Assembly: GCF_050920415.1 (NCBI RefSeq) | Contig: NZ_CP169309.1 | From: Escherichia coli | Lineage (GTDB): Bacteria > Pseudomonadota > Gammaproteobacteria > Enterobacterales > Enterobacteriaceae | Direction: 5' to 3' (one strand) | Length of the DNA stretch: 64,000 nt | Shown here: piece by piece, positions 1-46,694 of the stretch | How positions within the stretch are numbered: position 1 is the first letter of the stretch | How the letters are laid out: each line of letters begins with the position of its first letter | Position numbers and translations under genes: made by a program | The notes under the pieces: model-generated | Database searches by the model: none | What the model saw: the letters and a program-made list of their open reading frames with translations, nothing else | What the model was told of the DNA's origin: nothing

Positions 1-12
1 GGCAATGTAATC

Positions 13-915: not shown

Positions 916-933
916 ACCTGAGGAAATACCATA

Positions 934-2355: not shown

Positions 2356-2434
2356 TTAACTTGAGCAAACGGCTTACCGGAAAGTTGATCTCTTTCTGGT
2401 GGCTGTTTTCGCGCTTAAAACGAGGCGAAAAACA

Positions 2435-3195: not shown

Positions 3196-3205
3196 GGAGG
3201 GGATT

Positions 3206-4007: not shown

Positions 4008-4022
4008 CTGAGGATAGGCAAA

Positions 4023-6057: not shown

Positions 6058-6464
6058 AATCGCCCCTTATTTGGTGCACAACATGGTACACAAATCATGG
6101 TTTACGCAATATAACGCAAAAGCGCGCTTGTTTACAGCGAAAACCAGTAAATCTACTAAATTCATGGCGTTAGGGGTGATTTTGCTTGCGTATGTTTACG
6201 CTTGTGCGCGGTATGTAGCATTAGAAAGAGAAATGCTGCTGACCAACAGCGCACAACACGTGACTGAAACAGAGTGCTTCATAAGTTACCCTCAAACCTG
6301 CGTTAATAATCATGCGTAATTATTTGTTTCGCCTTAAAGAAATGCAAACAACTTCCGGCAAAAAAGTGATACGAGATCGATAACATAGCGTTGAAGAAAA
6401 GGATTTGATAATCCGCAAAATTTGCACAACACTGCCTGTAATACTTCCTGAACCAGAGACGATC

Positions 6465-11552: not shown

Positions 11553-12946
11553 CGCAATTTATCTCCTATTAAAAATTCCAGCGCAGCATCAAGGCGAATA
11601 TGCGGCAACGGTTTGTCGACATCCATTACCTGCGGGCGAAACGCCTCAAACTGGAAGCCTTGCTTATCCCAGAACGCCTGGCCAGGCAAACGTGCGGGAA
11701 CTTCGCCAGGATACACAGTGAGCGGTGCGCCATCGCTGAGTCGATTACCGCGCAGCGCCGGGATTTTCTCACCGTTAACATCAATAATGCCGCTGGTGGT
11801 CGCCTGAACTGACGCCAGCCCCAGGCAGTCCATGCTGATCCCTTCGAACGCCGCATTTTGCCAGGCATCCTGAATCAGTTGTTGCAGTAATGAAACCATA
11901 TTGGCGTGCTGATCGATGGTCACATGATCCGCTTTAGTGGCAGCAAACAATAGCTTATCGATAACCGGCGAAAACAAGCGCCGGAACAAGGTACGCTGCC
12001 CGTAGTGGAAGCTTTGCATCAGCTGCGTCAGCGCCAGACGCATATCATTGAATGCTTGTGGTCCACTGTTGAGAGGTTGCAGGCAATCCACCAGCACAAT
12101 CTGCCGATCAAAGCGCAGAAAATGATTTTTATAGAATCCCTTCACCACTTTCTCGCAGTAATAATTAAATCGTTCGCGCAGCATTCCGGCATTGGTGTGC
12201 TTGTCGGCTTGTGCTAGTTTTGATTCGCCCCAGGCATCGACATCTGGCCACGGGAAGAATTGCAGCGCGGGCGCACCTGCCATATCGCCCGGCAAGACAA
12301 AACGCCCAGGCTGAATAAAGTGCAGCCCCTGCTGTTTGCAGTGGTGGAGATAATCGGTCCATGCGGCAGCAATGTCTGCAAGACGGTTTTCGTCGGCAGG
12401 TGCTAGTGGGTCCAGCCCTTCGCACATCATTCGCCATTTTGCCGACCATTCGCCGCGCTGACCATTGAGTAAGCCCGTCATCTGGCGCGACCAGCTTAAA
12501 TAGTCCTGCGCCAACATCGGCAAGTCGAGTAACCATTCGCCAGGATAATCCACTATCTCCAGATACAACGTGGAAGTGTCTTTGAAGTGACGCAACAGCG
12601 AATCGTTCGATTTATAGCGTAGCGCCAGGCGAATCTCACTGACGCCGCGTGTTGGGGTTGGCCAGGCGGGAGGATCGCCATATAACTGCGCCAGCCCTTC
12701 ATCGTAGGTGAAGCGCGGAATGCCAAAGTCACGCTGGGGAATGCGTTTTACGCCCAGCAGGCGCTCTTCACGCACCGCACTTAATAGCGGCAAGCGTGCT
12801 CCGGCATGAATATTGAGCAACTGATTGACCATCGCAGTGATAAACGCGGTTTTGCCGCTGCGGCTAAGTCCGGTTACAGCGAGGCGCAGATGTCTGTCGA
12901 CACCCCGATTCACCAGCGCATTAAGTTCATTTTTAAGTCGCTTCAT
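11549..12946 (-). CDS. ycjX: P-loop NTPase YcjX (DUF463-type)
   Basis: [35 protein letters not shown]... (Walker A GLSRSGKT); 465 aa from the internal ATG. Confidence 0.8.
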
Positions 12947-13090
12947 TGCTGTCCTGTGGACCAGAAAAAAATCATTCGTAAGGATATGAATGTGGGGGCC
13001 ATGCCCTTGATTATCAACTGCCCGTGTTGTCATCTTGAGGCGAACTCCATAAGATGTGCAGCATTCACGTTCGGACGGAGTTCCTGACCT

Positions 13091-14089
13091 ATGTCCCCTA
13101 CTATTTATGATATTGCCAGGGTTGCCGGCGTATCAAAATCCACCGTATCACGCGTGCTGAATAAGCAAACCAATATCTCCCCGGAAGCGCGCGAAAAAGT
13201 GTTACGGGCCATTGAAGAATTACAGTATCAGCCAAATAAACTGGCCCGCGCGCTGACCTCTTCGGGCTTTGATGCCATTATGGTGATTTCTACCCGCTCG
13301 ACCAAAACTACGGCGGGTAACCCGTTTTTCTCCGAAGTTTTGCATGCCATTACCGCCAAAGCGGAAGATGAGGGTTTCGACGTGATATTGCAGACGTCGC
13401 ACAACCCGGCTGAAGACTTACAAAAATGTGAAAGCAAAATTAAGCAGAAAATGATTAAAGGCATTATTATGCTAAGTTCGCCAGCAGATGAGTCTTTTTT
13501 CGCCCAACTCGATAAATACGATATTCCGGTGGTAGTAATTGGCAAAGTTGAAGGTGAATATGCCCATGTTTATTCTGTCGATACCGATAATTTTGGCGAC
13601 AGTATTGCGCTGACCGATGCATTAATTGAAAGTGGACATAAAAATATTGCCTGCCTGCATGCTCCGCTTGATGTTCATGTTTCGGTTGATCGCGTTAATG
13701 GCTATAAGCAAAGTCTGGAAGATCATAATATTGCAGTGCGCAGTGAGTGGATCGTTGACGGCGGTTATACCCATGAGACAGCATTAAAAGCCGCACGGCA
13801 ATTATTAAGTCAGTCACCGTTGCCTGAGGCAGTGTTTGCTACTGACAGCCTGAAATTAATGAGCATTTATCGTGCGGCGGCAGAGAAAAACATTGCTATT
13901 CCGCAGCAGTTAGCGGTGGTGGGTTATAGTAATGAAACGCTGTCGTTTATATTAACGCCTGCACCGGGCGGCATCGATGTTCCGACGCAGGAGTTAGGTC
14001 AACAAAGCTGCGAGTTATTATTCCGCTTAATTGCCGGAAAACCGTCACCACAAAATATTACCGTTGCCACGCATATGTCGTTGAAATAA
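13091..14089 (+). CDS. ycjW: LacI-family transcriptional regulator
   Basis: 332 aa; N-terminal helix-turn-helix [24 protein letters not shown]. Confidence 0.85.
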
Positions 14090-14103
14090 ATGCCAGCTAC
14101 GTT

Positions 14104-14188
14104 GCCTGAATGCCGGATGCGATGCTGGCGCATCTTATCCGGCCTACATTTATAAACCGGATAAAGTACTCGCGCCGCATCCGGCAAT
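14104..14188. repeat. REP/BIME-type palindromic repeats
   Basis: gccggatgcgatgctggcgcatcttatccggcctac and an inverted ccggataaag...cgccgcatccggca copy. Confidence 0.5.
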
Positions 14189-14199
14189 TTAGCACATTA

Positions 14200-15105
14200 T
14201 CAGAACGCGTAATTCACACCGACACCTGCATAATGGAATTTATCGCTGTCGCCTTCATCGTGATCCTGCCACTCAAACGCGTATTCCAGCGAAACGGAAA
14301 GACCATTCTGGAAATCATAACCGTAAAACAAACCAAGACGGTTAAAATCATGGCCTTCACGTTCGATATCATCCTGCCAGTCCCAGTTACTCCAGCGATC
14401 CAACCCAATGCGCGTATACGGTGTTACCGAGTGATTGCCGAGCGTCAGCGGTAAATAGGCGCGAATTTCTTGCGTGGAGAATTCACCGTTATTGCGGCTG
14501 TCGTCCATATTGAAGCCGCGCTCGAGATAATAGTTCACCCGCAAGGCAACCGTTTCGTTGAAGGTATATTGCAGACCCGTTTCCGTTTCGACACGGGTAT
14601 CAGCATAACCGGTCGTATTCAGATCGTTGGCAAATTTATACATCGACAGCCAACCGTTGAAACGTAAATCGTCAGTCAGTTTCACATCCCAGTCTGGCGC
14701 GATTTTCCAGCGCTGCATATTTGCCGTGTCTTTACCCGGTTCATCAACGTAGTGATAACCATAGTTACGGAAACCACCGGTCAGGCCGAAACTGAAATCA
14801 TCGCTTTCGAGAAACTGATAATGCACTTCCAGTTCCGGGCGATCAAACCAGGTTCCACGTTTACCCGCGCTATAATCTACCGGCCCTTCCTGGTAATAAG
14901 CCAGCGATATTCTCCACGGCCCATTGGCAGCATTAAAATAGACGGAAGGCTCCGCCAGCCCGTCCATATCTTCGCCATAACCCTCAACGTTTTCTATTTC
15001 GTACATCGCGCCGATATTAAAGTGCCAGTCTTTTTTTTCCTCAGCCTGTGCGCAGGCCATTCCCGCACACATCACCAGTGCGGTACAGGGTAATAACTTT
15101 TTCAT
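14200..15105 (-). CDS. ompG: Outer membrane porin OmpG
   Basis: 301 aa; signal peptide MKKLLPCTALVMCAGMACA; beta-barrel sequence ending ...GVGVNYAF. Confidence 0.9.
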   Translation of the reverse strand: MKKLLPCTALVMCAGMACAQAEEKKDWHFNIGAMYEIENVEGYGEDMDGLAEPSVYFNAANGPWRISLAYYQEGPVDYSAGKRGTWFDRPELEVHYQFLESDDFSFGLTGGFRNYGYHYVDEPGKDTANMQRWKIAPDWDVKLTDDLRFNGWLSMYKFANDLNTTGYADTRVETETGLQYTFNETVALRVNYYLERGFNMDDSRNNGEFSTQEIRAYLPLTLGNHSVTPYTRIGLDRWSNWDWQDDIEREGHDFNRLGLFYGYDFQNGLSVSLEYAFEWQDHDEGDSDKFHYAGVGVNYAF

Positions 15106-15149
15106 TATTGTTCCTTGTATTATCCTGGGGGAATGCCTTCCCCCTGTAT

Positions 15150-16232
15150 TTAGCGAATTGCTATTTCCGTTTCTGCATCAAAGAAATGACATTTGGTCAT
15201 ATCAAAATGAATAGTGACGTTTTCTCCTGCATGATAATCATTTAACGCACCGGCACGGACCACCAGCTCGTGCCCCCCAACCGTGGTGTAGAGCATAAAT
15301 TCCGCACCGGTTAATTCCGCCACGCTAATTTTGGCGGAAATGTTATTTTCCTCTTGCGCATCCGGATGAATATCCTCCGGGCGTATTCCCATCACGATGG
15401 GTTTATGCAAACTTTCCTGCGTTTTCAGAACGGCTAATTTATCTTCGGGAATGGTTAATTTAAGCGTTTCCGTAACGAATTTATCGCCATCGATCGTGCC
15501 GCGAATAAAATTCATTGCTGGTGACCCAATAAATCCGGCAACAAACATATTCGCCGGTTGGTTATAGACCGTTTTCGGCGCACCGACCTGCTGAACAATC
15601 CCATCCTTCATAATGACAATCCGCGTCGCCATGGTCATCGCTTCGGTCTGATCGTGGGTCACGTAGATCATGGTGGTGTTCAGTTTCTGATGCAGCTTGC
15701 TGATTTCCGCGCGCATTTGTACGCGCAGCTTGGCATCCAGGTTAGAGAGCGGTTCATCCATCAAAAACACGCCCGCTTCACGCACAATCGCCCGTCCGAG
15801 CGCCACACGCTGGCGTTGCCCGCCGGAAAGCGCCCCCGGCTTGCGTTTCAGGTACTCACGCAGGCCGAGGATTTGCGCCGCCCAGTTAACCCGCTCATCA
15901 ATCACCTCTTTGGCGATTTTTTGCATCTTCAGGCCAAACGCCATGTTGTCGTAGACCGTCATATGCGGATACAGCGCGTAGTTCTGGAAAACCATCGCAA
16001 TATTGCGCGCTTTGGCCGGAACGTCATTCATTCGTTTGCCGTCGATCAACAGATCGCCGCCGCTGATCTCCTCAAGCCCGGCAATCATACGCAGCGTCGT
16101 CGATTTACCGCAGCCCGACGGACCGACAAACACGATGAACTCTTTATCGGCAATCTCCAGGTTGAAGTCCTTCACCACATGCACCTGGTTATCGTAGATC
16201 TTTTGAATATGTTGTAACGAAAGCTGTGCCAT
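15150..16232 (-). CDS. ycjV: ABC transporter ATP-binding protein (MalK-like), intact
   Basis: 360 aa with Walker A GPSGCGKST, signature LSGGQRQR and Walker B FLMDEPLSNLD; uninterrupted frame. Confidence 0.85.
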   Translation of the reverse strand: MAQLSLQHIQKIYDNQVHVVKDFNLEIADKEFIVFVGPSGCGKSTTLRMIAGLEEISGGDLLIDGKRMNDVPAKARNIAMVFQNYALYPHMTVYDNMAFGLKMQKIAKEVIDERVNWAAQILGLREYLKRKPGALSGGQRQRVALGRAIVREAGVFLMDEPLSNLDAKLRVQMRAEISKLHQKLNTTMIYVTHDQTEAMTMATRIVIMKDGIVQQVGAPKTVYNQPANMFVAGFIGSPAMNFIRGTIDGDKFVTETLKLTIPEDKLAVLKTQESLHKPIVMGIRPEDIHPDAQEENNISAKISVAELTGAEFMLYTTVGGHELVVRAGALNDYHAGENVTIHFDMTKCHFFDAETEIAIR

Positions 16233-16245
16233 GTTGATTCCTTTG

Positions 16246-16905
16246 CTATACGTTTTGCCAGAAGGCCGATAACCGCGGCCAGGTCAGAGATTCCGTTGAG
16301 GGCAGCAACAGTTGCGCCCCGGTTAAGCTCGTGCCGATCCCCACCGAGCGCATACCGCTGGCGTTAATGGCGTCAATGCCCGCCTGCGCATCTTCAATGC
16401 CAATGCAGGCCTGTGGAGGCACGCCCAGCCCGGCACAGGCGGCGAGAAAGATTTCCGGATCCGGTTTCGAGTGTTTAAGTTGGGAAGCGTCCGCGCAGAA
16501 GGTGAAAAACTCGCGCAGCTCCAGCGCCGCTAAAATTGTTGGGGCATTCAGAGAGACGGAGGCCAGCCCTACCGGGATGCCTTGCGCCCGAAGATCTGCC
16601 AGCAAAGGCCGAATTCCCGGCAGAACAGCGTTAACCGTCAGTTCGCGCAGTGAGTGGACGTAGAGCAGATTTTTGCGATACGCCAGTTGCGCCCGCTCTT
16701 GCACGTTAAAGTCGCCCTCTTTGCCCCCGTGTTGCAGAATGCGCCGCAGGGACTCATCGCGGCTGATCCCTTTTAACGTCTCGTTAAATTGCGCATCGAT
16801 GCTGATGCCGATTTCGGCGGCAATCTGCTGCCATGCCTGGAAGTGCAGATGTGCGGTGTCGGTGATCACGCCATCCAGATCGAAAATTACCCCTTGTAGT
16901 TTCAT
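16246..16905 (-). CDS. ycjU: Beta-phosphoglucomutase (HAD family)
   Basis: 219 aa; [20 protein letters not shown] motif. Confidence 0.85.
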
Positions 16906-19169
16906 TCATCCTCCTGATGTTTGGTAGCGGTCCCATTGAAGGGCAAAATAAAATCACCCAAACAGAAAACAGATTCTTCAGTCACGGAAATAAGCTGACC
17001 GTTCAACCGCATTGAAACGGGCGCAGAAGTTCGAATCGCAATACGCTGCGCGTCGAGAGTGACCTGTAATTCGCAGCCCTGCCAGAACAAAGGGAAAGAT
17101 AACTGTTGCCACTGCTCAGGTAACGCTGGGTTCAGATGTAATTCGCCGTCGCGCACGCTGACTCCGGCAAAACCCTGAATCGCCCCCAGCCAGATAGCGC
17201 CAGTTGCGGCGGCATGGATACCGTCATCGCAGCTATGCGGATCAGCACCAAGATCGATTTCACTCCCCTCGCGCCAGAACGGGTAACTCTGCGCAAGCAA
17301 GCCACAACGCGCGGCAACAATGCCGTGGATCGCTTTACTCAATGACGAGTCGTGAATGGTGCGCGGTTCATAAAATTGCAGATTGGCGAGACAAGAGGCC
17401 GCTGAAAATTGTTCTGGTAGCATGTAATTGAGCATCACCACATCGGCCTGCTTGAGGATCTGCATCTCGTTCACTTCTGCGCGTGAATAATCCAGCAGAA
17501 TGGTTTGTTTGCCTGCCGCCGCTTTGTATTTCGCCAGATCTATCGCCGGTTTCGCCATAAACGAATCATCCTGCGGCAAAACGCCGTCGGGCTGAATTTC
17601 TGGCATCCACAGCTCTTTGAGGAACATGTCGGCACGATGAATAAACGCATCGTCGCTACAGCCAAACTGGCGAGCAATATTCAGTGCCTGTTGGACGTTG
17701 TAGCAGGCCATATAACTTGTGTATGCGTTATTGTTAACGTGTTCGGTATATTCGTCTGGCCCAATAACATCATGAATTTCCAGACGATCGTTAACCCTTA
17801 CCGCGCGGCTAATCCAGAACTTTGCGGTCTCCAGCAGTAGCGCCATGCCTTCGTGAGCAACGAAGCTTTCATCCCCCGTTACCTGCCAGTATTGAATAAC
17901 CGCCCAGGCGATATCGGCAACCAGATGATGTTCCGCCTGCGCTGAGGCCACTTTTTGCCGTAGCCCGGTACGAATGTTTATGGCGGCAAATTCCGGGGTC
18001 TCTTCTTCGCCGCTGCGTGCGCTTTCCCACGGAAATAGCGCGCCCTGCCAGCCATTGCGTCGCGCTTTCTCCTGCGCCCCCGGTAAGTTGTGCCAGCGAT
18101 AGCGCAGCAAACTCCGGGCAATCGTCGGTTCGCTAAACAGATGGAACGGCAGCAGGAACACTTCCGTATCCCAGAAAACATGGCCTTTGTAGCCTTCCCC
18201 GGTTAAGGCTTTTGCCGCAATGCTGCTACGCTCGTCGTGGGCGGGCGTCATAATACGCAAATGATAAAGCGCATAGTCTAACGCCCGCTGATCGTGCGTA
18301 TCGCAACTCTTTACCGTGATACGACGTTTCTGCCACCATTGCTGCCAGTTTTCTGTCGATGCTGCAAGAAGTTGGTCATAACTCTGTTGTGTACACATTT
18401 CAAGCTGGCGAAGCGACGCACTGCCCCACTCGTCTAAAGCGGCTTGTCGGTCATCCCGCCAGTCAATCCACACCCGCTTTTGCAAGGTCAGTGTTTCACC
18501 TGTGCGAAGTTGCGCGCTGGTATGTTGCAGCAAACGGCGCTCTTTGGCGGTATAGCACTGCTGAACGTCACCACTCGCCTGACAGTGACAACTGATTGCC
18601 ACATCACTGCGCCCATCCTGGGTGGTGTAGATCCCCTGCATCAAATGCTGACCAAACACCCGGACCTGGGTTTCATCCAGATGCTGGCGACCGTGGTTGG
18701 TTTGCGTGGCGTTAATGCCTGTTGAGATCAGCACTGATGCCTCGGCGTCCAGCGGGGTAATACTGATTTCCAGCGCGATCAGCGGCAGTTGATCTGTCGA
18801 AACAAAACGACGACTTGCAAGGGTAAACCGTGCGCCGTCGCTGCTGCGCCAGATAACACTGCGGCGTAATTCTCCACTGGCAAAGTCAAGCTCACGCTGC
18901 CACGCTTCGCGGGATAACGAAAAAATCTCGCCGTTTAGGGTAATTTCCATTCCCACCACGTCTGGCAGATTCACCAGTTCGTTGATTTCTCCTTTCCCGG
19001 CTCGATGATAAAGCCCTGCCAGATACATGCCGCGCGTCTGCCGCGTGTAATCTTCTTCATGGCTGGCACGAAGCCCAAGATAGCCGTTCCCCTGCGCCAT
19101 TAATGAGGCATATTTATTCAGGGTATGCTGGCTGAATTGGGGTTCCGTTAATGTTACTGGCCTGGTCAT
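16902..19169 (-). CDS. ycjT: Glycoside hydrolase family 65 phosphorylase (kojibiose phosphorylase)
   Basis: 755 aa; overlaps ycjU and ycjS by 4 nt. Confidence 0.85.
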
Positions 19170-20221
19170 AATTCCACACGCATCCCTGTTTCTGCGGATT
19201 GATACAGCGCCGCCACCAGTTGCTGGATGATGTACCCTTGCTCGGCGTCGGCAATCATCACAGGCTTGCCCTGTACGTGATTGATAAAGGCTTCCATGCT
19301 GCGCAAATGACGGTTGTCGTCGGCCAGTTCCCGTTGCATCAGCGTCATTAATTCACCGTTGTTATCGGTGTAGATATGCGCCGGAAACAGCGTGGCTCCC
19401 GCTTTATCGCCGCAAAAGCTGACGTTCATCATCGACTGTTCGCGGATGTTGAGTGCAAATGATGTCTCCAGCAAAAGAATGCCGCCGTTATGAAATTCAA
19501 TGGTGCCAAACAGCGAATCTTCGACGCTGTAGGTTGCCGGGTCCCACTCACCAAATTGACCACAGCTCTTTTGAGTACCTATTTTCTGAAAGCTGTGCGC
19601 CGTGACGCTTTTCACCGCCGGAAAGCCCAGCACATACATCGCGGCATCCAGCATATGAATGCCAATGTCGATCAGCGGGCCGCCACCCTGCAGTTCTTTA
19701 TTGGTAAAGACACCCCAGCCGGGAACGCCGCAGCGACGCAGGGCGCGGGCGGTCGTGACGTAAATCTCACCCAAAACGCCGTTGGTCACCTGTTCACGCA
19801 ATTGTTGCGTATCAAGGGCAAAACGATGGTGAAAGTCGTAGGCCAGCACCTTGCCCCGTTTGCGCGCGGTATCACACATCTCCCGCGCCTGTTCTGGTGT
19901 CATGGCGGGCGGTTTCTCGCACATCACATGGCAGCCTGCCTCCAGCGCCATCAGGGTATGCTCGTAATGAAAACGGTTAGGTGAACAGACGCTTACCACG
20001 TCAGGTTTTACCGCCAGCAGCATGGCCTGCGGATCGTCCCACACGGATGCGTTCCCGTATTTCTCTGCCAACGCCTGCGCCTGGGAAAGGCGGCTGTCAC
20101 AGACAGCCACCAGTTCCAGATCGTTGCGGGTGCAGTAGTACGAAGCATGAACCTTATCCGCCACCTGGCCCGCGCCTATTATCGCGACCCGCAGCGGAGA
20201 GCTTGTCATTGCACTTTTCAC
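19166..20221 (-). CDS. ycjS: Gfo/Idh/MocA-family NAD-dependent sugar dehydrogenase
   Basis: 351 aa; Rossmann motif VAIIGAGQVADKVH. Confidence 0.85.
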   Translation of the reverse strand: MKSAMTSSPLRVAIIGAGQVADKVHASYYCTRNDLELVAVCDSRLSQAQALAEKYGNASVWDDPQAMLLAVKPDVVSVCSPNRFHYEHTLMALEAGCHVMCEKPPAMTPEQAREMCDTARKRGKVLAYDFHHRFALDTQQLREQVTNGVLGEIYVTTARALRRCGVPGWGVFTNKELQGGGPLIDIGIHMLDAAMYVLGFPAVKSVTAHSFQKIGTQKSCGQFGEWDPATYSVEDSLFGTIEFHNGGILLLETSFALNIREQSMMNVSFCGDKAGATLFPAHIYTDNNGELMTLMQRELADDNRHLRSMEAFINHVQGKPVMIADAEQGYIIQQLVAALYQSAETGMRVEL

Positions 20222-20230
20222 AAAGACCTC

Positions 20231-21019
20231 TTAGCAGGTGCGCAACCAGGCCAAAGAATCACGGTACGCCTGAGCAGGATCTTCTGCCCGAATGCGCCCT
20301 TCATACACCACATAGCCCTGATAGTTATCGGCGCGCAGCTGTTCAAACAGCGCGTGGAAATCGAGGGTGCCGCTGCCCGGCTGATAGCGATGGTTATCGG
20401 CAATATGCACATGACCAAGCAGGTCACGGTTGTCATGCAGCGCCTGCGCCAGGTTATCCTCTTCGATGTTCATGTGATAGAAATCGCCGATAATCTGCAC
20501 ATGTTTAAGGTTGTTTTCGACGATGTAACGACGAGCATCGGCGAGCGTGTTGATCATGTGGTCCTGATAGCGGTTTAGCGGTTCGAGATACACCACCGTT
20601 CCGGTACGCGCGGCCACCTTTTCCAGGAAACGCAGGGAATCGCTCACCATTTGACGATCGCCGTCCAGGCTGCGCGGTGAGGTCATCGGCGGTAAGCGGA
20701 AGGTAAACATGCCCCACGCAGCCGGAACGACAATACCTTTACCGCCCACTTCCGCCAGCGCCTCAAGAATGCGCTCGATCTGCTTTAAACCATTAAGACG
20801 ACGCTCTTCGATAAAGTCGCCAATCCAGCCGTCATAGCCGCCGCAGGCGGTGGTCACCGGTAAACCGGTTTCTTTGATCGCTGCTTTGACTTCTTCGAGA
20901 TTGTTGACCAGCAGTTTGCCGTCAATCTCAAAACCATCAAAACCCATCTCTTTGATATAACGAAATTTCTCCAGAATATTTTCCGGAAAGAAGGCCTGAT
21001 TCTGTGTGCCGATTTTCAT
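20231..21019 (-). CDS. ycjR: Sugar phosphate isomerase/epimerase (TIM barrel)
   Basis: 262 aa; MKIGTQNQAFFPENILEKFRYIKEMGFDGFEI. Confidence 0.85.
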   Translation of the reverse strand: MKIGTQNQAFFPENILEKFRYIKEMGFDGFEIDGKLLVNNLEEVKAAIKETGLPVTTACGGYDGWIGDFIEERRLNGLKQIERILEALAEVGGKGIVVPAAWGMFTFRLPPMTSPRSLDGDRQMVSDSLRFLEKVAARTGTVVYLEPLNRYQDHMINTLADARRYIVENNLKHVQIIGDFYHMNIEEDNLAQALHDNRDLLGHVHIADNHRYQPGSGTLDFHALFEQLRADNYQGYVVYEGRIRAEDPAQAYRDSLAWLRTC

Positions 21020-21035
21020 TTTTCCGTCCTTAGAA

Positions 21036-22088
21036 TTAAAAAGTTACGCCCATTTTGATGCTCTGTTCCGGATGCTGGTCGACATACTGCATGTAGCTTT
21101 CCGGGCTGTTAGCAAAGGTCACCACCGGGTCGATTAAATCTTCACAATTGAGATAACCGTTCATCAGCAGTTCCCAGCAGGTTTCTTCAATACGCTTGCG
21201 GCTCCAGCGCGGATAATCCGGGTTCGGTTCACTGCACGCACGAGAGAAGACAATTTTGGCGTTGTTGAAATGCGCTTCGCGTCCGAGGTTAAAACCTTCG
21301 GCAAATGGTTTGGCAAATGCGACATACGAGATGGTGCCGCCATAAGCCAGGCCGCGCAGTGCCGATTGCAGCGCGTCGGCGTAGCCGCTGGTTTCGATAA
21401 TCACATCGGCACCCTGCTTGCCGGTCAGCGTTTTAATCTCTTTGCCTACATCCGTGCCAATGGGGTTAAGGCAGAAATCCGCCCCGTGGCGACGGGCAAT
21501 ATCACAGCGATGAGCGATAGGATCGACACCAATCACCACCGACGCGCCAGCGCGTTTTGCCAGTTGAATGGCAATTTGACCAATCGCGCCAAGCCCGACT
21601 ACCACCACAAAATCGCCCACACGCACGTTGGCATCGCGCACGCCGCTCATGGCAAACTGCGCCGGGTCGTAACAGACGGCGTTTTTCCACGAGCTACCTT
21701 GCGGCATTTTGCGCAGTTTGTAGTTATTCACCGCGTTAATGATGACCGTTTCGGAAAGCGGGCCGTAGCCGCATACGCTGTCGCCCACCGCGTAGTCGGT
21801 AACCTCGCTGCCGCACTCGATAATGTCGCCAACCACCATGTTGCCAAGCTGGAACTTGCCAAACTCAATGCCGCGCGGCGCATCTGCCGGACGGGGGGTG
21901 AACATCTGCCATTCGCCATTAAAGTCTTCATTAATAAACGGGCTGGCGGCGCGGAAATCGACCACTTCCGTCCCGTGTTTCGGCGCGCCGAACCGCACGC
22001 GGATCTTCACTTCATTGGCTGAAATCGCCCTGTCTTCATACTCCACCAACGCGGCAACGCGCGGTGCTGTGGCTACTAACTTTTTCAT
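21036..22088 (-). CDS. ycjQ: Zn-dependent medium-chain dehydrogenase
   Basis: 350 aa; GVDPIAHRCDIARRHGAD region typical of MDR dehydrogenases. Confidence 0.85.
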   Translation of the reverse strand: MKKLVATAPRVAALVEYEDRAISANEVKIRVRFGAPKHGTEVVDFRAASPFINEDFNGEWQMFTPRPADAPRGIEFGKFQLGNMVVGDIIECGSEVTDYAVGDSVCGYGPLSETVIINAVNNYKLRKMPQGSSWKNAVCYDPAQFAMSGVRDANVRVGDFVVVVGLGAIGQIAIQLAKRAGASVVIGVDPIAHRCDIARRHGADFCLNPIGTDVGKEIKTLTGKQGADVIIETSGYADALQSALRGLAYGGTISYVAFAKPFAEGFNLGREAHFNNAKIVFSRACSEPNPDYPRWSRKRIEETCWELLMNGYLNCEDLIDPVVTFANSPESYMQYVDQHPEQSIKMGVTF

Positions 22089-22118
22089 GTAAAACTCCTT
22101 GTCAAGAAACTGGCCGCT

Positions 22119-22961
22119 TTAGCCCTTCACGCCACCGGCGGTCAAACCACTCTTAATAAAACGTTCCGAAAGTGCATACATAATCACCACCGGCAATGCG
22201 GTCACCAGCGAGGCCGCCATCATTCGGCCCCAGATGTAATCAGGGGTACTGAACAGCGCGTTCAGGCCTACCGGTAAAGTGAAATTGCTGGCGCTGGAGA
22301 GGAAAATCGAGGCAAACAGATAGTCGTTCCACGCCACCATAAAGCAGTAGACGAACACGGATATCAGCCCGGACATCGCCAGCGGTACCGTGATGCGGAA
22401 GATGATTTGCAGCCGGTTGAGGCCATCCATCATCGCCGCTTCTTCGATTTCATCGGGGATGGTGTCGAAGTAGCTTTTCAGCATAAACACAGCGGTAGGC
22501 AGGGTTTGCGTCACCATGGTGATGATCAGCGCCATCTCGGTGTCATAAACGCCAAGCGCGGTGATGATTTTGAACAGCGGCACCACCAGCAAAATGCCGG
22601 AGAACATGTACACCGTGTAAAAGCTGGCGTTGATGGTCATTCGCCCTTTAAAGCGCAGGCGGGAAAGCGCGTAAGCCCCGAGAATGCCGAGAAATACTGC
22701 TATCACGGATGAAACTACCGACACCACCAGGCTGTTACGGAAATAATCGACAAACGGGAAAATCACCGGGTTAAAAATGTCGACGTAATGCTCCAGCGTC
22801 CACTGCTGTGGCAGCAGCGTAGGATGCAGCGAGATCGCCTCTTTCGCGCTTTTGAACGAGGTCATCAGCATCACAAAAAAGGGAAACAGCGTGATGATGA
22901 GAAACAGCGCCAGCCCGCAGTAAAAACCGATGCGACTGAGTGTGCGTTTATTTGTTGCCAT
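22119..22961 (-). CDS. ycjP: ABC transporter permease
   Basis: 280 aa; multi-pass hydrophobic sequence; overlaps ycjO. Confidence 0.85.
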   Translation of the reverse strand: MATNKRTLSRIGFYCGLALFLIITLFPFFVMLMTSFKSAKEAISLHPTLLPQQWTLEHYVDIFNPVIFPFVDYFRNSLVVSVVSSVIAVFLGILGAYALSRLRFKGRMTINASFYTVYMFSGILLVVPLFKIITALGVYDTEMALIITMVTQTLPTAVFMLKSYFDTIPDEIEEAAMMDGLNRLQIIFRITVPLAMSGLISVFVYCFMVAWNDYLFASIFLSSASNFTLPVGLNALFSTPDYIWGRMMAASLVTALPVVIMYALSERFIKSGLTAGGVKG

Positions 22962-23829
22962 TGAGGTTCACCCGTTTTCTGGTCAGCAGAATGACAGCGA
23001 AAATAATGATGAAGAGCACCACTGAGATCGCCGCCGCTTTCCCTAAGTCATTAAAGGCAAAGGCGGTTTTGTAGAGATAGACGCCGAGAATATCGACCTT
23101 GGTCGTCAGCAAATAAACGTCAGCGAACATGTAGAACATCCAGATGGTACGCAGAGTCACCACCGTCGCCAGGACCGGCATAATCGCGGGCAGCGTGACG
23201 ATGCGAAACCGTTGCCAGGCATTCGCGCCGTCCATCTCTGCCGCTTCGTACAGCGATTTATCAATGGTCTGCAAAATCGCCAGAAACGAGATAAAGGCAT
23301 ACGGGAAGTAGCGCCAGATGGCGAACAGCACCACCAGCACAAAACTACTGCCCGGGTTATCGAACCACAGCGGCGCCTGCTCATAGAGATGCAGAAGATC
23401 GACGCCGAGGTAGTTCACAATGCCGTAGCCGTTGTTGAACATGTATTTCCAGGCGAACACCAGCGAAATGGACGGCGTTACGTAGGAGAGGATTACCAAC
23501 GAACGCGCGGTTTTGCGCAGGCGAAACTCGCGGTTGAAAAACATCGCCACCGCCAGGCCGAGCACGGTGCTACCTGCCACCACCAGCGCGGTATACCAGA
23601 CCGTCATCCACAGCGAGTGCCAGAAGCCGGGATCGGAGAGAATACGCACATAGTTGCTCACCCCAACAAACGTTGCCTCGATGTTGGGATTGAGCGGCAG
23701 ACGTAAAAAACTAATTTCGATATTCGACACCATTGGCCACGCCACCAGACCGCCCAGCAGTAATAAGCTGGGCGCGAGAAGCAGCAGCGCAAAGGGCATA
23801 TCGGAACGACCTGAAAAAAGCCTGTTCAT
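22948..23829 (-). CDS. ycjO: ABC transporter permease
   Basis: 293 aa; MalF/G-like membrane protein. Confidence 0.85.
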   Translation of the reverse strand: MNRLFSGRSDMPFALLLLAPSLLLLGGLVAWPMVSNIEISFLRLPLNPNIEATFVGVSNYVRILSDPGFWHSLWMTVWYTALVVAGSTVLGLAVAMFFNREFRLRKTARSLVILSYVTPSISLVFAWKYMFNNGYGIVNYLGVDLLHLYEQAPLWFDNPGSSFVLVVLFAIWRYFPYAFISFLAILQTIDKSLYEAAEMDGANAWQRFRIVTLPAIMPVLATVVTLRTIWMFYMFADVYLLTTKVDILGVYLYKTAFAFNDLGKAAAISVVLFIIIFAVILLTRKRVNLNGNK

Positions 23830-23849
23830 TGCGGATTCCTGTCCTGGGA

Positions 23850-25142
23850 TTAGTGCTGTTCGATCAGTTCATCCAGCTTTTTCTGGCTCGCTTGCAGCGT
23901 GGTTGAGAGATCGGCTTTCCCCACGGTGACGTTATGCACCATTGAACTCACCACACCAGACCCCGTCACATCGCCCATGCGGGTAAAGTTTTTGTCCCCT
24001 ACCGCACCAAAGACCTGAATGTTTGGCAGTTCGCTAATCAACTGATTCGGCAAGTCTCCCAGCGCCTTAATCACGTCGTTATCTTTCCAGGTGGCAGTCG
24101 TCACAACCGCTTTGTTCACCGGCAGCGCCGCGCCTGGCGACATCATCACCCAGTCGGCAATGTTGTCCGCCTGCTCCATAAAGGTGACAAATTTTTCTGC
24201 CGCTTCCGTCTCTTCGCTCTTTTGCCCGGCGGTAATGGTCAGCGAGGTCAACATGCCGTAGACCGCCGAGTTTTTCTCGGTTGGCACCACGAAACCGACA
24301 TTTTTCGGGTCACCTTCTTTAATCACAGCCGGAAGGATATAGGTGGAGTAAATCGCCATCGGCGCGGTGCCGTTCATAAAGGCGTCTTTCACTTCCATAA
24401 TGTCGTTAGAACCCGGCATGGTGTTGGCAGCAAGGTCGCGGTAATAGGTCAGCGCCTGCATCATCTCCGGCGTATCAAGGGTGATTTTGCCTTCGGCGTT
24501 AAAAACGTTGGCCTGATTGGATAACGCAAACTGAGAGAACGATTGTTCCGTCAGTACGCTTTCTGCCGTCGGCAGTGCAATACCGTATTTTTTATTCGCC
24601 GGATCGTTCAGTTTCTGTGCGACATCCAGCAACTGTTGCCAGTTTTTCGGCTCATCCAGCCCGGCTTTTGCCAGCACATCTTTGCGATACCAGATACCGC
24701 CAATCCATGCGCTGACAGGAACACCGGTCCAGGCGCTACCATCTTCGGTGCGCACAATCCGCAGAACGCCGTCATAAAACGCGCCTTCACCGACATTACT
24801 GATGACCGTAGCAACCGCTTTGCGATCGATAAGCTGTTCTTTGTCCATCACTTTCGCGTAGTCATGGCTGGTTTCGATCACTTCCGGCAGCGAGCCGCTA
24901 CGGGAAAGGGTGATGACTTTGGTGTTATAGGCATCTTCTTCCACCGGCACTTGTTTAACAGTGATGCCTGGGTTTTCTTTTTCAAAACGCGCAATTAAAT
25001 GACTAATTACCGCCTGGCGTTCCTGTTCCACCGAAGAATGCATAAACTCGATGGAAACATTCGTTTTATTTTCTTCTTTACAACCTGAAATCAGGGCGCA
25101 GGAAACCAGTGCTGATAACAGCACGATTTTTGATTTAATCAT
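23850..25142 (-). CDS. ycjN: ABC transporter periplasmic sugar-binding lipoprotein
   Basis: 430 aa; lipobox MIKSKIVLLSALVSCALISGC. Confidence 0.85.
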   Translation of the reverse strand: MIKSKIVLLSALVSCALISGCKEENKTNVSIEFMHSSVEQERQAVISHLIARFEKENPGITVKQVPVEEDAYNTKVITLSRSGSLPEVIETSHDYAKVMDKEQLIDRKAVATVISNVGEGAFYDGVLRIVRTEDGSAWTGVPVSAWIGGIWYRKDVLAKAGLDEPKNWQQLLDVAQKLNDPANKKYGIALPTAESVLTEQSFSQFALSNQANVFNAEGKITLDTPEMMQALTYYRDLAANTMPGSNDIMEVKDAFMNGTAPMAIYSTYILPAVIKEGDPKNVGFVVPTEKNSAVYGMLTSLTITAGQKSEETEAAEKFVTFMEQADNIADWVMMSPGAALPVNKAVVTTATWKDNDVIKALGDLPNQLISELPNIQVFGAVGDKNFTRMGDVTGSGVVSSMVHNVTVGKADLSTTLQASQKKLDELIEQH

Positions 25143-25155
25143 GAGATGTTCCTTT

Positions 25156-26835
25156 TTATTTAATCCACATAACCTGCCAGGGGCGCAGCGTTATTTCATT
25201 ATCCACTATATCAACTTCACTAATCAGATCCCGACCGTGCAGGTCAGTAATATTTATATGCAGAATATTTTCACTGACATTAAACAACCCCGTCAGACAA
25301 TCACCAGTTGCAGTGCTTCTTCGAATACGCATTACAGATGAATTAACCGTATCGATGGTAAAACTATTATCCGGATGAAATTCTTTATGCCGGCGACGAA
25401 GCGTAATTAAATGCGACAACTGATGATATACTGCGTGCCTGAGTGTCGTTTCATCGTTCAGTTCACTGGCTATCTCTTCACTACGATATTTCTTACGGTT
25501 AATCGCACGGTTATATCCCGGCTTTTCGACACCAGCGTAATCATTACGTGAACCCAGAATACTTTGAATATAGACAGCAGGCACACCGGGAAAGGTTAAC
25601 AATATGGCATGAGCAAGAATAAACCGGGCACAGCGTTCTTCGTCACTGCAATCGCGATGGCTCAATGCGTCCATGTAGGTCACATTCATTTCATACGGAC
25701 TGCGCGTACCATCGGGATTATTTTTCCAGTTTACTAATGCCCCTTCCTGCTGTAACGCCTCGACTAGCGCTAATATCTCGCTTTCAGGCAACAAGCCTCG
25801 CAGTGGGTTAAGTCCAATACCATCATGAGACGCGAGGAAGTTAAACCAGGTGGTTTTGCTGGAAGGCAACGTCAGACTTTGCGCCCACTGGCACAGCGCC
25901 TGGACGTTCTGTTTTTGCACCGCATGTAACACCAGCGGCGGCAGTGAGAACTGGTACACCATATGCGCTTCGTCATCGCCGTTGCCAAAGTAAGCAATGT
26001 TGTCTTTATGCGGGACATTGGTCTCAGTAATGATGACCGTCCCCGGCGCGACGCTGTCAGTAATGGCGCGTAACAGTTTGATAATTTGATGTGTTTTATC
26101 CAGGTGGATGCAACTCGTTCCCGGCTCTTTCCACATAAAGCCAACGGCATCCAGACGGACATACTCTGCGCCTTTTTCCAGGTAACACATCAGCACATCT
26201 ACCATCGCCAGTAATACATCTGGGCTGCGATAATTGAGGTCAATTTGATCGTCGCTAAAGGTCGTCCATAAATGGCGCATTGAATTATCGTGCATTTTAA
26301 ACGGCGTTAATAAGGGTAACGCGCGTGGGCGAGTGACGGCGCTAAGATCGGTTTGCGGGTCAACAGCAATGAAAAAGTCTTCAAAGCCTGGCTTTTGTTG
26401 TAAATAGTTTTTAAACCATTCACTTTTAGCCGACATGTGGTTGCAGACAAAATCAAACATTAAATGACTGCATTCACCGAGTTGCTGAATATCCTGCCAC
26501 TCCCCCGCTTCACTGGCGACCTGATGATAATCAATTACCGAAAAGCCATCATCAGATGACCATGGATAAAACGGCAATAAATGAACATGTGAAAAAATGC
26601 TTTGCAGCCAGTGATGGTAAAACTGATTAAATGTGGGTAGTGGTTTTAAATCATTACTGTGAAATTGATCGGCATAGGTAATTAACACGACATCACTTTC
26701 ATCCCAGTGTTTTTTACGTCGCTGTGTAATTAATCTTTTCGCACTCTCAAGACGCGTTACAAGTTTCTGTAAATGAGTCGCGGTAAATGTTCCACCGTAG
26801 ATTTCGTCCAGGTAATCCGTAATTTTCTGTTTCAT
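25156..26835 (-). CDS. ycjM: GH13 sucrose-phosphorylase-like glycoside phosphorylase
   Basis: MKQKITDYLDEIYGG...; 559 aa from the internal ATG. Confidence 0.85.
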   Translation of the reverse strand: MKQKITDYLDEIYGGTFTATHLQKLVTRLESAKRLITQRRKKHWDESDVVLITYADQFHSNDLKPLPTFNQFYHHWLQSIFSHVHLLPFYPWSSDDGFSVIDYHQVASEAGEWQDIQQLGECSHLMFDFVCNHMSAKSEWFKNYLQQKPGFEDFFIAVDPQTDLSAVTRPRALPLLTPFKMHDNSMRHLWTTFSDDQIDLNYRSPDVLLAMVDVLMCYLEKGAEYVRLDAVGFMWKEPGTSCIHLDKTHQIIKLLRAITDSVAPGTVIITETNVPHKDNIAYFGNGDDEAHMVYQFSLPPLVLHAVQKQNVQALCQWAQSLTLPSSKTTWFNFLASHDGIGLNPLRGLLPESEILALVEALQQEGALVNWKNNPDGTRSPYEMNVTYMDALSHRDCSDEERCARFILAHAILLTFPGVPAVYIQSILGSRNDYAGVEKPGYNRAINRKKYRSEEIASELNDETTLRHAVYHQLSHLITLRRRHKEFHPDNSFTIDTVNSSVMRIRRSTATGDCLTGLFNVSENILHINITDLHGRDLISEVDIVDNEITLRPWQVMWIK

Positions 26836-27048
26836 GTTGCCTTTCCGTGGTAGCGGTCCCATGAGACGAGAGACTACTCCGCAGAAAATAAACTGTCAAT
26901 TGAGCACAAGGGTTTTAGTCACGCAGGAAATCATTTTTTACCAGGGAAAAAGCGTATTTGTGAACTGACGCAAATAATCTATGGGGATGTAAATAAGGTG
27001 TGACAGAAAAAGTAAACGGCGCATAAGCGCCGCTTAGGGGGGATTCTT

Positions 27049-27363
27049 TTAACCTTTGACCTTCGGCATTGCGATGTCTTTCAGGCCGCCAGCGTTCTCA
27101 ACGTGGGTATATCCCATCTCGCTAAGGATCTCTTTTGCCTGCCCTGACTGGCGTCCGGCATTGCAATACACTTTCACGGTGTCGTTTTTATCCGGAACGG
27201 CGGTGGCAATGCGCTCTTTCACTTCCTTCAGGGGAATATTGATGGCTCCCTGAACGTGCTCTTGCTGATACTGCTCTGGAACACGAACATCGATCCAGTG
27301 TTCAGCGGCGAAAACGGGCAGTGAAAACACCAGTGTCAGAGCAAGTAAGCCTTTTTTAAACAT
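27049..27363 (-). CDS. pspE: Thiosulfate sulfurtransferase (rhodanese) PspE
   Basis: 104 aa; signal peptide plus rhodanese motif VKVYCNAGRQSGQA. Confidence 0.9.
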   Translation of the reverse strand: MFKKGLLALTLVFSLPVFAAEHWIDVRVPEQYQQEHVQGAINIPLKEVKERIATAVPDKNDTVKVYCNAGRQSGQAKEILSEMGYTHVENAGGLKDIAMPKVKG

Positions 27364-27437
27364 GTAAGCGTCCTTCTATGGATGAAAATTGCCATCCATA
27401 ATACGCCTTAGCTTTAACAATTTTTGCGAAACTCCCC

Positions 27438-27659
27438 TCACCTTTTATAACGCTGCGCCAGTTTATTGGCAGCCCGACTTAACAGCGGTTCCAGCGCCAC
27501 GGCCAGCAACATTTTCAGCGGTCGGCGAGCAACTGATTTTATCGCCCAGCCAGCTACACCTGCCGGGCCATAGCGCAGTGCGGTAAGAAGTACCAGCTTG
27601 CCTGCTAATTTGAAACCAGGCTTCACCTTTTGCCCGGCCTGTTGCCAGCGAGTATTCAT
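27438..27659 (-). CDS. pspD: Phage shock protein D
   Basis: [22 protein letters not shown]...; 73 aa. Confidence 0.85.
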
Positions 27660-27667
27660 AACTTTCC

Positions 27668-28027
27668 TCACAGTTGACGGAAACGGCTACGTAACGTGAA
27701 AGTATCGGAAGTGACATAACGTTCCATCTCGCGTAAACGCGTTTCACTTGCCGCCAGTTCACGGTCGACATCATCCAGCAATTCGCTGCTGGAAGGTAGC
27801 TGCTCACCAAAGGCCATGTTGTCCGGCATTGGATCAAGCGCAAATGACAAAATGATGTAAGCAACCAGGGTAAACAGCGCCAGGCCGAAGAAAATCGACA
27901 GCACCACCAGGATACGTACCAGTTTTACCGGTACATCAAAATAGTTGGCAATCCCGGCGCAGACGCCACGTACCATGCCCTGCTGTGGAATACGCCATAA
28001 TTTTTTATTGAGATTAATACCCGCCAT
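27668..28027 (-). CDS. pspC: Phage shock protein C
   Basis: 119 aa; [30 protein letters not shown]. Confidence 0.9.
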
Positions 28028-28251
28028 TAGCGATCCCTCCAGTTCGGATGTTCTGCATCAAGAATGGATTCCAGTGCCTGAATACGTTCGCGCATCCGTT
28101 TTGCTTCATCAGCCAGTTGCGCTAATCGTTGCTGCTCACTTTGCGACAATTCACCGCGACCGGAACGATTGCTGTAATGCAGCCATAACCAGATCGGTAA
28201 AACAAACAGCACAAAAATGGTTAACGGAATAGCCAGAAATAGCGCGCTCAT
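28027..28251 (-). CDS. pspB: Phage shock protein B
   Basis: 74 aa; MSALFLAIPLTIFVLFVLPIWLWLHY. Confidence 0.9.
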   Translation of the reverse strand: MSALFLAIPLTIFVLFVLPIWLWLHYSNRSGRGELSQSEQQRLAQLADEAKRMRERIQALESILDAEHPNWRDR

Positions 28252-28304
28252 AAGGACTCCTTAGACGATGAGCGGCGGCGCGTTCGGACGCCGCCTGGAT
28301 GTTA

Positions 28305-29045
<741 letters not shown>

Positions 29046-29139
29046 TTATCTTTTTGATTTATAAAGATCTGATTGAAGAATCAACAGCAACATGCCAGGA
29101 TGAGTTAGCGAATTACACTAACAAGTGGCGAATTTCATC

Positions 29140-30117: not shown

Positions 30118-30138
30118 CGAAGTTGGGCAATACAACTT

Positions 30139-30220
30139 GCCGGATGCGGCGTGAACGCCTTATCCGGCATACATAATGAATACGTCGTTTGCAGGCCTGA
30201 TAAGCGCAGCGCATCAGACA
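30139..30220. repeat. REP/BIME-type palindromic repeats
   Basis: tgccggatgcggcgtgaacgccttatccggcatac and caggcctgataagcgcagcgcatcagaca. Confidence 0.5.
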
Positions 30221-30236
30221 TTATTGCGTTGGGCTA

Positions 30237-44291: not shown

Positions 44292-44292
44292 G

Positions 44293-46677: not shown

Positions 46678-46694
46678 TCGTTCTGTTGGTCAAG

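Follow-up and report, generated by a model that had tools for sequence, protein, structure and literature searches.

The closest described system is the ycj operon of Escherichia coli K-12 MG1655 with its regulator gene ycjW (b1309–b1320). YcjW represses this operon and kojibiose relieves the repression in vitro (PMC6599011); the activities of the Ycj enzymes are those named in the K-12 annotation and are summarized in PMC11543891. As outlined in PMC6599011, which cites them, the kojibiose clusters of Thermoanaerobacter brockii and Pyrococcus sp. ST04 resemble ycj in placing a GH65 phosphorylase beside a beta-phosphoglucomutase and an ABC sugar importer; ycj goes beyond them with an extra GH13 phosphorylase, the YcjQRS module that leads from gulosides to glucosides, and a dedicated porin. 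The transporter ATPase YcjV has the ABC_tran, OB_MalK and TOBE_2 architecture common to MalK-, MsmX- and UgpC-type CUT1 ATPases. MsmX is an orphan multitask ATPase, whereas ycjV sits within its own operon and YcjV is no replacement for MsmX in Bacillus subtilis (PMC7658222).

We compared a 64-kb stretch of an E. coli genome (hereafter the window) with these systems. The window is collinear with K-12 positions 1332925–1390723, and its locus shares with K-12 the genes, their order, strands and overlaps, the neighbouring genes and two operators. The difference lies in ycjV: in MG1655 the run is five G residues long (G5) and the gene is a pseudogene in two parts, ycjV and ymjB, whereas the window has six (G6) and an intact gene. 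Typical wild E. coli (O157:H7, IAI1, CFT073, 536 and ST131) are like the window in this respect, with G6 and a YcjV of 360 amino acids. The region is very probably the orthologue of the K-12 ycjMNOPQRSTUV–ompG operon and ycjW, in an undamaged wild-type form that works as proposed.

Layout and operators of the locus

Ten open reading frames run from ycjM to ycjV on the minus strand without interruption (Table 1), and positions 15150 and 26835 are exactly the stop codon of ycjV and the annotated start codon of ycjM. A sequence-only reading had described this cluster as complete; the gene-by-gene comparison with K-12 bears this out, with ten full-length frames, product lengths equal to those of the K-12 orthologues and zero internal stops. 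Of the 4–14-nt overlaps that the same reading had noted, we measured three (ycjU/ycjT and ycjT/ycjS, 4 nt each; ycjP/ycjO, 14 nt), and the remaining gaps between ycjM and ycjV are 9–30 nt. It had also placed ompG and a LacI-type ycjW downstream, where both are found, and the gene functions it named agree with Pfam and NCBIfam matches. As in K-12, pspE flanks the locus upstream and ycjX downstream, with the same order and gene content. PGAP annotates the same set of frames in NZ_CP169399.1, a genome nearly identical to this one. The idea that the window is identical to that genome throughout was discarded, as window positions 1–6213 are a prophage end that is absent there.

Table 1 Features of the ycj locus, in window coordinates
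Feature	Position	Strand	Description	Identity to K-12 (aa)	Domain match or remark
YcjW operator 1	26848–26861	−	TGGGACCGCTACCA; 13–26 nt upstream of the ycjM ATG		Exact copy, same place in K-12
ycjM	25156–26835	−	GH13 sugar phosphorylase (K-12: glucosylglycerate phosphorylase); 559 aa		No internal stop; Pfam Alpha-amylase
ycjN	23850–25142	−	ABC substrate-binding lipoprotein; 430 aa	98.6%	Pfam SBP_bac_1/SBP_bac_8
ycjO	22948–23829	−	ABC permease; 293 aa	99.7%	Pfam BPD_transp_1
ycjP	22119–22961	−	ABC permease; 280 aa	98.6%	MalG-like
ycjQ	21036–22088	−	Zinc-dependent dehydrogenase (K-12: D-guloside 3-dehydrogenase); 350 aa	99.1%	Pfam ADH_zinc_N
ycjR	20231–21019	−	Sugar epimerase/isomerase; 262 aa	98.1%	Pfam AP_endonuc_2
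ycjS	19166–20221	−	Gfo/Idh/MocA dehydrogenase (D-glucoside 3-dehydrogenase); 351 aa	98.3%	GTG start
ycjT	16902–19169	−	GH65 kojibiose phosphorylase; 755 aa		Pfam GH65 N, middle and C domains
YcjW operator 2	16922–16935	−	TGGGACCGCTACCA; 3′ end of ycjT, immediately upstream of ycjU		Also in K-12
ycjU/pgmB	16246–16905	−	Beta-phosphoglucomutase; 219 aa		NCBIfam TIGR01990, 270 bits (cutoff 189)
ycjV	15150–16232	−	MalK/MsmX-type ABC ATPase; 360 aa		Intact
G6 run in ycjV	15273–15278	−	Gene nt 955–960		Site of the K-12 1-bp deletion
ompG	14200–15105	−	Monomeric porin, last gene of the operon; 301 aa	98.0%	Pfam Porin_OmpG
ycjW	13091–14089	+	LacI-family repressor, convergent with ompG; 332 aa	97.6%	Pfam LacI and Peripla_BP

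The operator sequence occurs only twice in the 64-kb window, even when up to two mismatches are allowed. Operator 1 lies at the position of a reported YcjW ChIP-seq peak and operator 2 at that of the second peak, between ycjT and ycjU (PMC6599011). An exact operator 1 is also present in Pseudocitrobacter vendiensis, where the upstream region is otherwise divergent. A scan of the sequence for promoters and terminators gave counts no higher than in shuffled sequence, with only the pspE terminator of note.

ycjV and its G tract

Both ycjV (b1318) and ymjB (b4524) are annotated as pseudogenes in MG1655, which, together with a 1-bp deletion seen on alignment, confirms the frameshifted K-12 gene named in the sequence-only reading. 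The alignment places the lesion within the G6 run, where one G is absent in K-12; beyond codon 320 the frame is lost, and codon 323 is a stop, which leaves a product of 322 amino acids. The window translation contains no such internal stop. Once repaired, K-12 YcjV differs from that of the window by only three residues, and dN/dS between the two genes is 0.011.

Window YcjV matches ABC_tran (residues 21–162), OB_MalK (236–288) and TOBE_2 (282–351), all above the Pfam cutoffs. The K-12 product keeps the nucleotide-binding core and OB_MalK and loses half of TOBE_2. The C-terminal regulatory (TOBE) domain contributes to the dimer in MalK structures. The translation contains the motifs expected of MalK/MsmX-type ATPases, namely Walker A (GPSGCGKST), a Q-loop, the signature (LSGGQRQR), Walker B (VFLMDEPLS), the H-loop (VTHDQ) and a C-terminal OB/TOBE region, and scores 484.5 bits against the NCBIfam UgpC subfamily (cutoff 432). 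Among solved structures, it is best matched by MsmX of B. subtilis (6yir; E = 1e-148, full length). Purified intact E. coli YcjV has been demonstrated to hydrolyse ATP (PMC7658222).

To count tract alleles, we ran exact-match probes against the 4,995 complete E. coli genomes in which the site is present. Of these, 4,389 matched G6, 369 matched G5 and one (13TMH22) matched G7; among the matches listed, 58 of 60 G5 genomes are K-12 laboratory derivatives. Two assemblies outside K-12, 2014C-3051 and 08-00022, carry G5. A single contig scan with a strict peptide-derived pattern, which is not a survey of distribution, returned five loci from other species, all of them G6 with intact YcjV. G6 is also present in the near-identical genome MFDS1022581, the exact window protein was found in 1,715 blocks of public assemblies, and the 42 codons 3′ of the frameshift site are conserved in wild strains and other species. 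Intact YcjV thus lacks the distinctiveness that the sequence-only reading had implied. The 360-residue protein is the ancestral state and overwhelmingly common in E. coli; it is the laboratory strains of K-12 that depart from it, through loss of one G from the run of six.

A G homopolymer is a classic site of sequencing error, and the G5 tracts of 2014C-3051 and 08-00022 and the G7 tract of 13TMH22 could be errors of this kind. The chance that the intact window gene is itself an assembly error, hiding a frameshift like that of K-12, is nevertheless close to nil, and we rejected it: G6 is the majority state among independently assembled E. coli genomes and recurs in the five other-species loci and in MFDS1022581, and the identical protein is widespread in public assemblies. 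The same counts bear on whether the run acts as a contingency switch that toggles the transporter in natural populations. It is a homopolymer within a coding sequence, and at least two isolates other than K-12 have G5 and one has G7; however, six bases are short for a contingency tract, the G5 genomes listed belong almost entirely to one laboratory lineage, and the rare off-length variants could be sporadic mutations or assembly errors. We did not find the frequent length polymorphism of a phase-variable locus, and consider such a switch highly unlikely.

Lineage and cross-species copies of the operon

The source strain belongs to a rare, divergent lineage of E. coli. Its ycj allele is itself rare compared with typical wild strains: only 45 of 5,040 genomes reach at least 95% identity over the cluster, and the bulk lie at about 93%. 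Divergence from K-12 had raised the possibility that this strain imported the cluster. We dismissed that explanation: among lineage relatives, cluster and flanks are equally similar (97–100%), which suggests a native cluster.

The window allele is 94–100% identical to the operon of one Escherichia fergusonii genome and of the P. vendiensis type strain, whereas the flanking genes are only 72–86% identical. This contrast indicates that the whole operon has probably been replaced recently across species. A mislabelled or contaminating E. coli contig in the P. vendiensis record is now considered unlikely, with the flanks on the 231-kb contig 72–84% identical to E. coli. The contig shows sharp breakpoints within homologous genes, with one junction near nt 270–290 of ycjM and the other where ycjX begins; a second P. 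vendiensis assembly has the same left junction, but both assemblies were built from one read set. It is possible, and we put it forward tentatively, that the window allele is a mobile operon haplotype that has replaced the resident locus by homologous exchange at least twice, once in the E. fergusonii genome and once, between other breakpoints, in the P. vendiensis type strain.

Predicted pathway and its meaning

The mechanism that we propose is drawn from published K-12 work and carried over by orthology. YcjW, on two identical 14-bp operators upstream of ycjM and of ycjU, would repress the operon until a glucoside-type inducer is present. OmpG would let oligosaccharides across the outer membrane, and the YcjN lipoprotein, the YcjO and YcjP permeases and a YcjV ATPase dimer would import some glucoside. 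YcjT and YcjU would break down alpha-1,2-glucosides of the kojibiose type by phosphorolysis, yielding glucose and glucose-6-phosphate, YcjM would phosphorolyse glucosylglycerate, and YcjQ, YcjR and YcjS would turn gulosides into glucosides. In the K-12 laboratory lineage, the change from G6 to G5 truncates YcjV at residue 322, so that the C-terminal TOBE domain lacks its second half. It is plausible from the sequence that the strain studied here retains a functional transporter.

Per-gene identity to K-12 is 89.5–96.5% in nucleotides and 91.4–99.7% in amino acids, and dN/dS of 0.01–0.09 across all ten genes points to purifying selection. YcjM and YcjT are the most diverged proteins. YcjM (89.5% nucleotide and 91.4% amino acid identity; dN/dS 0.09) has 48 substitutions concentrated in its C-terminal half, scores 223.9 bits against NCBIfam sucrose phosphorylase, below the cutoff of 334.4, and is named just 'sugar phosphorylase' by PGAP in this allele. 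YcjT (90.2% and 93.7%, respectively) also has 48 substitutions, clustered in the N-terminal 350 residues. We assume that both would keep the specificity of the characterized K-12 enzymes, to which they are noticeably less than identical.

Minimal medium with kojibiose does not support growth of MG1655 (PMC6599011), which fits the ycjV lesion without proving it. The operon might instead be complete yet physiologically cryptic, tightly repressed by YcjW and without a natural substrate on which cells could grow; an intact ycjV would then be phenotypically neutral relative to K-12. OmpG and the ycj genes of K-12 are silent unless ycjW is removed, MG1655 grew slowly with kojibiose in rich defined medium with no improvement on ycjW deletion (PMC6599011), and YcjN bound none of the sugars tested, with no thermal shift for kojibiose, maltose or the others (PMC11543891). 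We nonetheless regard a cryptic operon as unlikely: the negative growth data all come from K-12 with its broken ATPase, purifying selection acts strongly on all ten genes, the cluster is kept at 80% coverage or more in 4,942 of 5,426 genomes, and the operon appears to have been copied recently into genomes of E. fergusonii and P. vendiensis.

The K-12 frameshift could also be inconsequential, if YcjNOP were still energized by the 322-residue product or by a different CUT1 ATPase, for example MalK or UgpC. The truncated protein does retain its entire nucleotide-binding core and OB_MalK, and sugar importers of Gram-positive bacteria commonly share a multitask ATPase (PMC7658222). We think this quite improbable, given the loss of half of the C-terminal regulatory domain and the conservation of the codons downstream of the lesion; moreover, exchangeability among these ATPases is limited, because E. 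coli YcjV and MalK both failed to substitute for MsmX (PMC7658222).

The reading that we favour remains an undamaged wild-type operon. Such an operon, ycjV included, is already known and is the ordinary state, because G6 is overwhelmingly common in E. coli and an intact, ATPase-active YcjV has already been purified; the finding matters little in itself because almost every E. coli has an intact ycjV. It carries a caution, in that almost all work on the ycj pathway has used K-12, where the transporter ATPase is frameshifted, and a term search of three ycj-focused papers returned no mention of this frameshift. Hunts for the natural substrate and explanations of the K-12 growth defect on kojibiose would be better pursued in a wild-type strain or in K-12 with G6 repaired. 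Copying of the operon over species and genus boundaries suggests that the pathway is useful in nature. If the allele is indeed a mobile haplotype, a working pathway with intact ycjV would be under episodic positive selection in the wild, and near-exclusive use of K-12, with its broken ATPase, would have obscured both the reason for its non-growth on kojibiose and the natural substrate.

Operon layout and the ycjV lesion of K-12

Ten successive minus-strand ORFs, identified from an ORF list of window positions 13000–31000, make up the ycjMNOPQRSTUV operon. They agree to the base with the genes annotated by PGAP in the near-identical E. coli genome MFDS1022581 (NZ_CP169399.1), which is 100% identical to the window across the operon, and alignment with K-12 MG1655 gave ten products of K-12 length with no internal stops. 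The sequence-only reading was accurate in describing a complete, uninterrupted cluster. The gene order is ycjM, N, O, P, Q, R, S, T, U (pgmB) and V, with pspE upstream and ycjX downstream, the same arrangement as in MG1655. The tight packing claimed, with overlaps of 4–14 nt, takes the form of three overlaps (ycjU/ycjT and ycjT/ycjS, 4 nt each; ycjP/ycjO, 14 nt), and the other intergenic gaps measure 9–30 nt. As had been stated, ompG and the LacI-type ycjW, the latter convergent, follow ycjV, and the proposed gene families agree with our family searches.

The longest ycjM ORF begins at an alternative ATG (26862) that abuts the YcjW operator and precedes the annotated start (26835) by 27 nt; a GGAAAGG ribosome-binding site is better placed for the annotated start. 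The 44-nt ycjV–ompG spacer holds a G+C-rich stem-loop, GGGGGAATGCCTTCCCCC. The 110-nt ompG–ycjW spacer carries two REP-like palindromes in the window and in K-12, and measures 55–57 nt with a single REP in the Pseudocitrobacter vendiensis and E. fergusonii copies.

Features of the window, with nucleotide identity to K-12 for selected features
Feature	Window coordinates	Strand	Identity to K-12
ycjMNOPQRSTUV operon	15150-26835	minus	
ycjM	25156-26835	minus	89.5%
ycjT	16902-19169	minus	90.2%
ycjU		minus	90.5%
G6 run in ycjV	15273-15278		
YcjW operator, upstream of ycjM	26848-26861		
YcjW operator, second copy	16922-16935		
Stem-loop in ycjV–ompG spacer	15127-15144		
ompG	14200-15105	minus	
ompG–ycjW spacer	14090-14199		
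ycjW	13091-14089	plus	
End of lambdoid prophage	1-6213		
DnaB-like helicase, prophage	934-2355		
NinB, prophage	3400-3831		
Tyrosine integrase, prophage	4837-6057	minus	
tyrR–puuE segment	6340-34412		94.57%
Remainder of window	34410-64000		97.06%

In the MG1655 annotation, ycjV (b1318) and ymjB (b4524) are adjacent pseudogenes of 1,082 nt together; ycjV in the window measures 1,083 nt. Alignment with the K-12 allele, the check proposed with the initial observation, placed the frameshift in a run of six Gs at gene nucleotides 955–960 (G6), where K-12 has one G fewer (G5), the sole indel between the two. Both the annotation and this deletion bear out the claim that K-12 ycjV is a frameshifted pseudogene. 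Past codon 320 the K-12 reading frame is lost, and a stop follows at codon 323, whereas the window gene encodes 360 amino acids ending in ...HFFDAETEIAIR; with the G put back, the K-12 protein differs from it at three residues (A232S, D264E and V339I). Window YcjV contains the Pfam domains ABC_tran (21–162), OB_MalK (236–288) and TOBE_2 (282–351), and in the 322-residue K-12 product half of TOBE_2 is left, scoring under the Pfam cutoff. The catalytic motifs are intact as read in the translation, a search of the window copy for an overlooked internal stop found none, and the best solved relative is Bacillus subtilis MsmX (6yir, E = 1e-148).

Tract length across E. coli and related species

We searched 5,426 complete E. 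coli genomes with 69–71-nt probes carrying K-12 flanks around the G run. G6 was matched exactly in 4,389 of 4,995 genomes with the site, including O157:H7, IAI1 and CFT073; G5 had 369 exact matches and G7 one. In 536 and ST131, one extra base was the sole difference from the G5 probe, and genomes matching no probe exactly, the window's lineage among them, differ from the probes by SNPs. Sixty of the G5 genomes were listed: 58 are clearly laboratory derivatives of K-12 (MG1655, C600, J53, DH5alpha, DH1, NCM3722, RR1 and others), and the remaining two are clinical or food isolates in which ycjV is annotated as frameshifted, 2014C-3051 (NZ_CP027338.1) and 08-00022 (NZ_CP013662.1). Together with the G7 isolate 13TMH22 (NZ_CP019256.1), these two reflect either sporadic tract slippage or homopolymer assembly errors. 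We also considered the G run as a phase-variable switch, which does not fit the tract-length counts.

A pattern scan of species-representative genomes identified five further loci (E. whittamii, two other Escherichia species, a Citrobacter-labelled MAG and P. vendiensis), all with G6 and an intact 360-residue YcjV at 97.5–100% identity to the window protein. The dominance of G6 in E. coli, and its presence with an intact gene at all five loci, indicate that G6 is the ancestral state; the G deletion is essentially a mutation of the K-12 lineage. The cluster is near-core, with at least 80% of it covered in 4,942 of the 5,426 genomes, and an intact ycjV is not unusual but the ordinary wild-type condition.

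A divergent lineage and operon copies in other species

Sequence comparison places the strain in a rare, divergent E. coli lineage. Across window positions 40000–52000 only 18 genomes reach at least 99% identity, most being at about 96%, and across the ycj cluster only 45 of 5,040 reach at least 95%, the bulk being at about 93%. Synonymous divergence (dS) from K-12 is 0.15–0.46 for the ycj genes, several-fold above the 0.06–0.12 of the adjacent psp genes, and differences climb abruptly past ycjM nucleotide ~450, which suggests old mosaic recombination. Relatives of this lineage resemble the window equally closely in cluster and flanks (97–100%), and the cluster therefore appears native to it. 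Several E. coli genomes that share the window's allele lineage (loci L013, L014, L018, L019, L020 and L022) have a 680-residue ORF between tyrR and tpx (~17469–19511 in these loci) that has no Pfam match and is absent from the window and K-12.

The prophage at the window's start joins the first ~69 nt of mppA at about 6214, thereby disrupting the gene. MFDS1022581, otherwise 99.97–99.995% identical to the window, has no prophage at this site, and its mppA is annotated as frameshifted. The K-12 genes ymjC, ymjD, ycjY and pgrR (K-12 1390724–1393139) are missing between mpaA and mppA (~6340–6369).

In the P. vendiensis type strain (contig CALSBS010000006.1), the cluster likewise sits between the psp genes and ycjX. 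The flanking genes pspF, pspA–D, ycjX, ycjF, tyrR, tpx and ycjG show 72–84% identity to the window and to K-12. A 13.5-kb block that begins at ycjM nucleotide ~270–290 and extends ~100 nt into ycjX (window ~26560 to ~12980; contig locus 2600–16200) shares 98.3% identity with the window; mismatches number 227, and the longest identical run measures 1,286 nt. Its best E. coli matches, N96 (98.6%) and MFDS1022581 (98.5%), belong to the window's lineage, compared with 92.7% for mainstream E. coli. At the 5′ end of ycjM and upstream of it, the P. vendiensis sequence is homologous yet divergent and keeps an exact YcjW operator, so a resident cluster seems to have been overwritten. In P. faecalis (CP109867.1, 9482–11398), pspD directly adjoins ycjX without a ycj cluster, which makes the distribution of the cluster in Pseudocitrobacter patchy. 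Both Pseudocitrobacter genomes lack pspE. An E. fergusonii locus (GCA_036697065.1, 1–21083), assigned by exact TyrR, YcjG and YcjF proteins, shows the same replacement pattern with different breakpoints: ycjN to ycjX are 94–99.7% identical to the window (~11100–25450), and the ycjF 3′ end, tyrR, tpx and ycjG 74–86%. The YcjV protein is 100% identical in the window, P. vendiensis and this E. fergusonii genome. A chimeric assembly is an unlikely source of the P. vendiensis pattern, although the two assemblies available share a single read set. On the simplest reading, the entire operon was recently exchanged by homologous replacement between species and between genera, with the direction, from an E. 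coli-type donor to the recipients, inferred.

Predicted function and the choice of K-12

Values of dN/dS against K-12 were 0.01–0.09 over all ten genes (0.011 for ycjV), indicating purifying selection on each. The 14-bp motif bound by YcjW, which represses ycjMNOPQRSTUV-ompG, underlies ChIP peaks upstream of ycjM and between ycjT and ycjU (PMC6599011); TGGGACCGCTACCA occurs exactly twice in the window, at the K-12 positions and in agreement with these peaks. The window copy of the operon probably works. By orthology with K-12, OmpG would provide the entry route and YcjNOPV the importer, YcjT/U, YcjM and YcjQRS would process the imported sugar, and YcjW would repress the operon. Compared with their K-12 counterparts, YcjM and YcjT show 48 amino-acid substitutions each, clustered in the C-terminal half of YcjM and the N-terminal 350 residues of YcjT, and PGAP labels them merely 'sugar phosphorylase' and 'GH65 protein'.

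The feature is already annotated and has been used experimentally. Intact E. coli YcjV (WP_000057985.1) was expressed, purified and ATPase-active, and did not substitute for B. subtilis MsmX (PMC7658222). Kojibiose frees YcjW in vitro, yet kojibiose minimal medium does not support growth of MG1655 (PMC6599011), and crystallographic work on YcjN found no ligand, kojibiose included (PMC11543891). A word search found no 'pseudogene' in three ycj-focused texts (the YcjN transporter study PMC13053599, the preprint version of PMC11543891 and a Mol Biotechnol paper) and no 'frameshift' in that preprint; the K-12 frameshift is therefore not mentioned in these texts.

The original observation is confirmed and its interpretation factually supported. 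The interest of the locus lies first in a caution over K-12 as the strain for studying the ycj pathway, and second in the mobility of the operon across species, seen here in passing.
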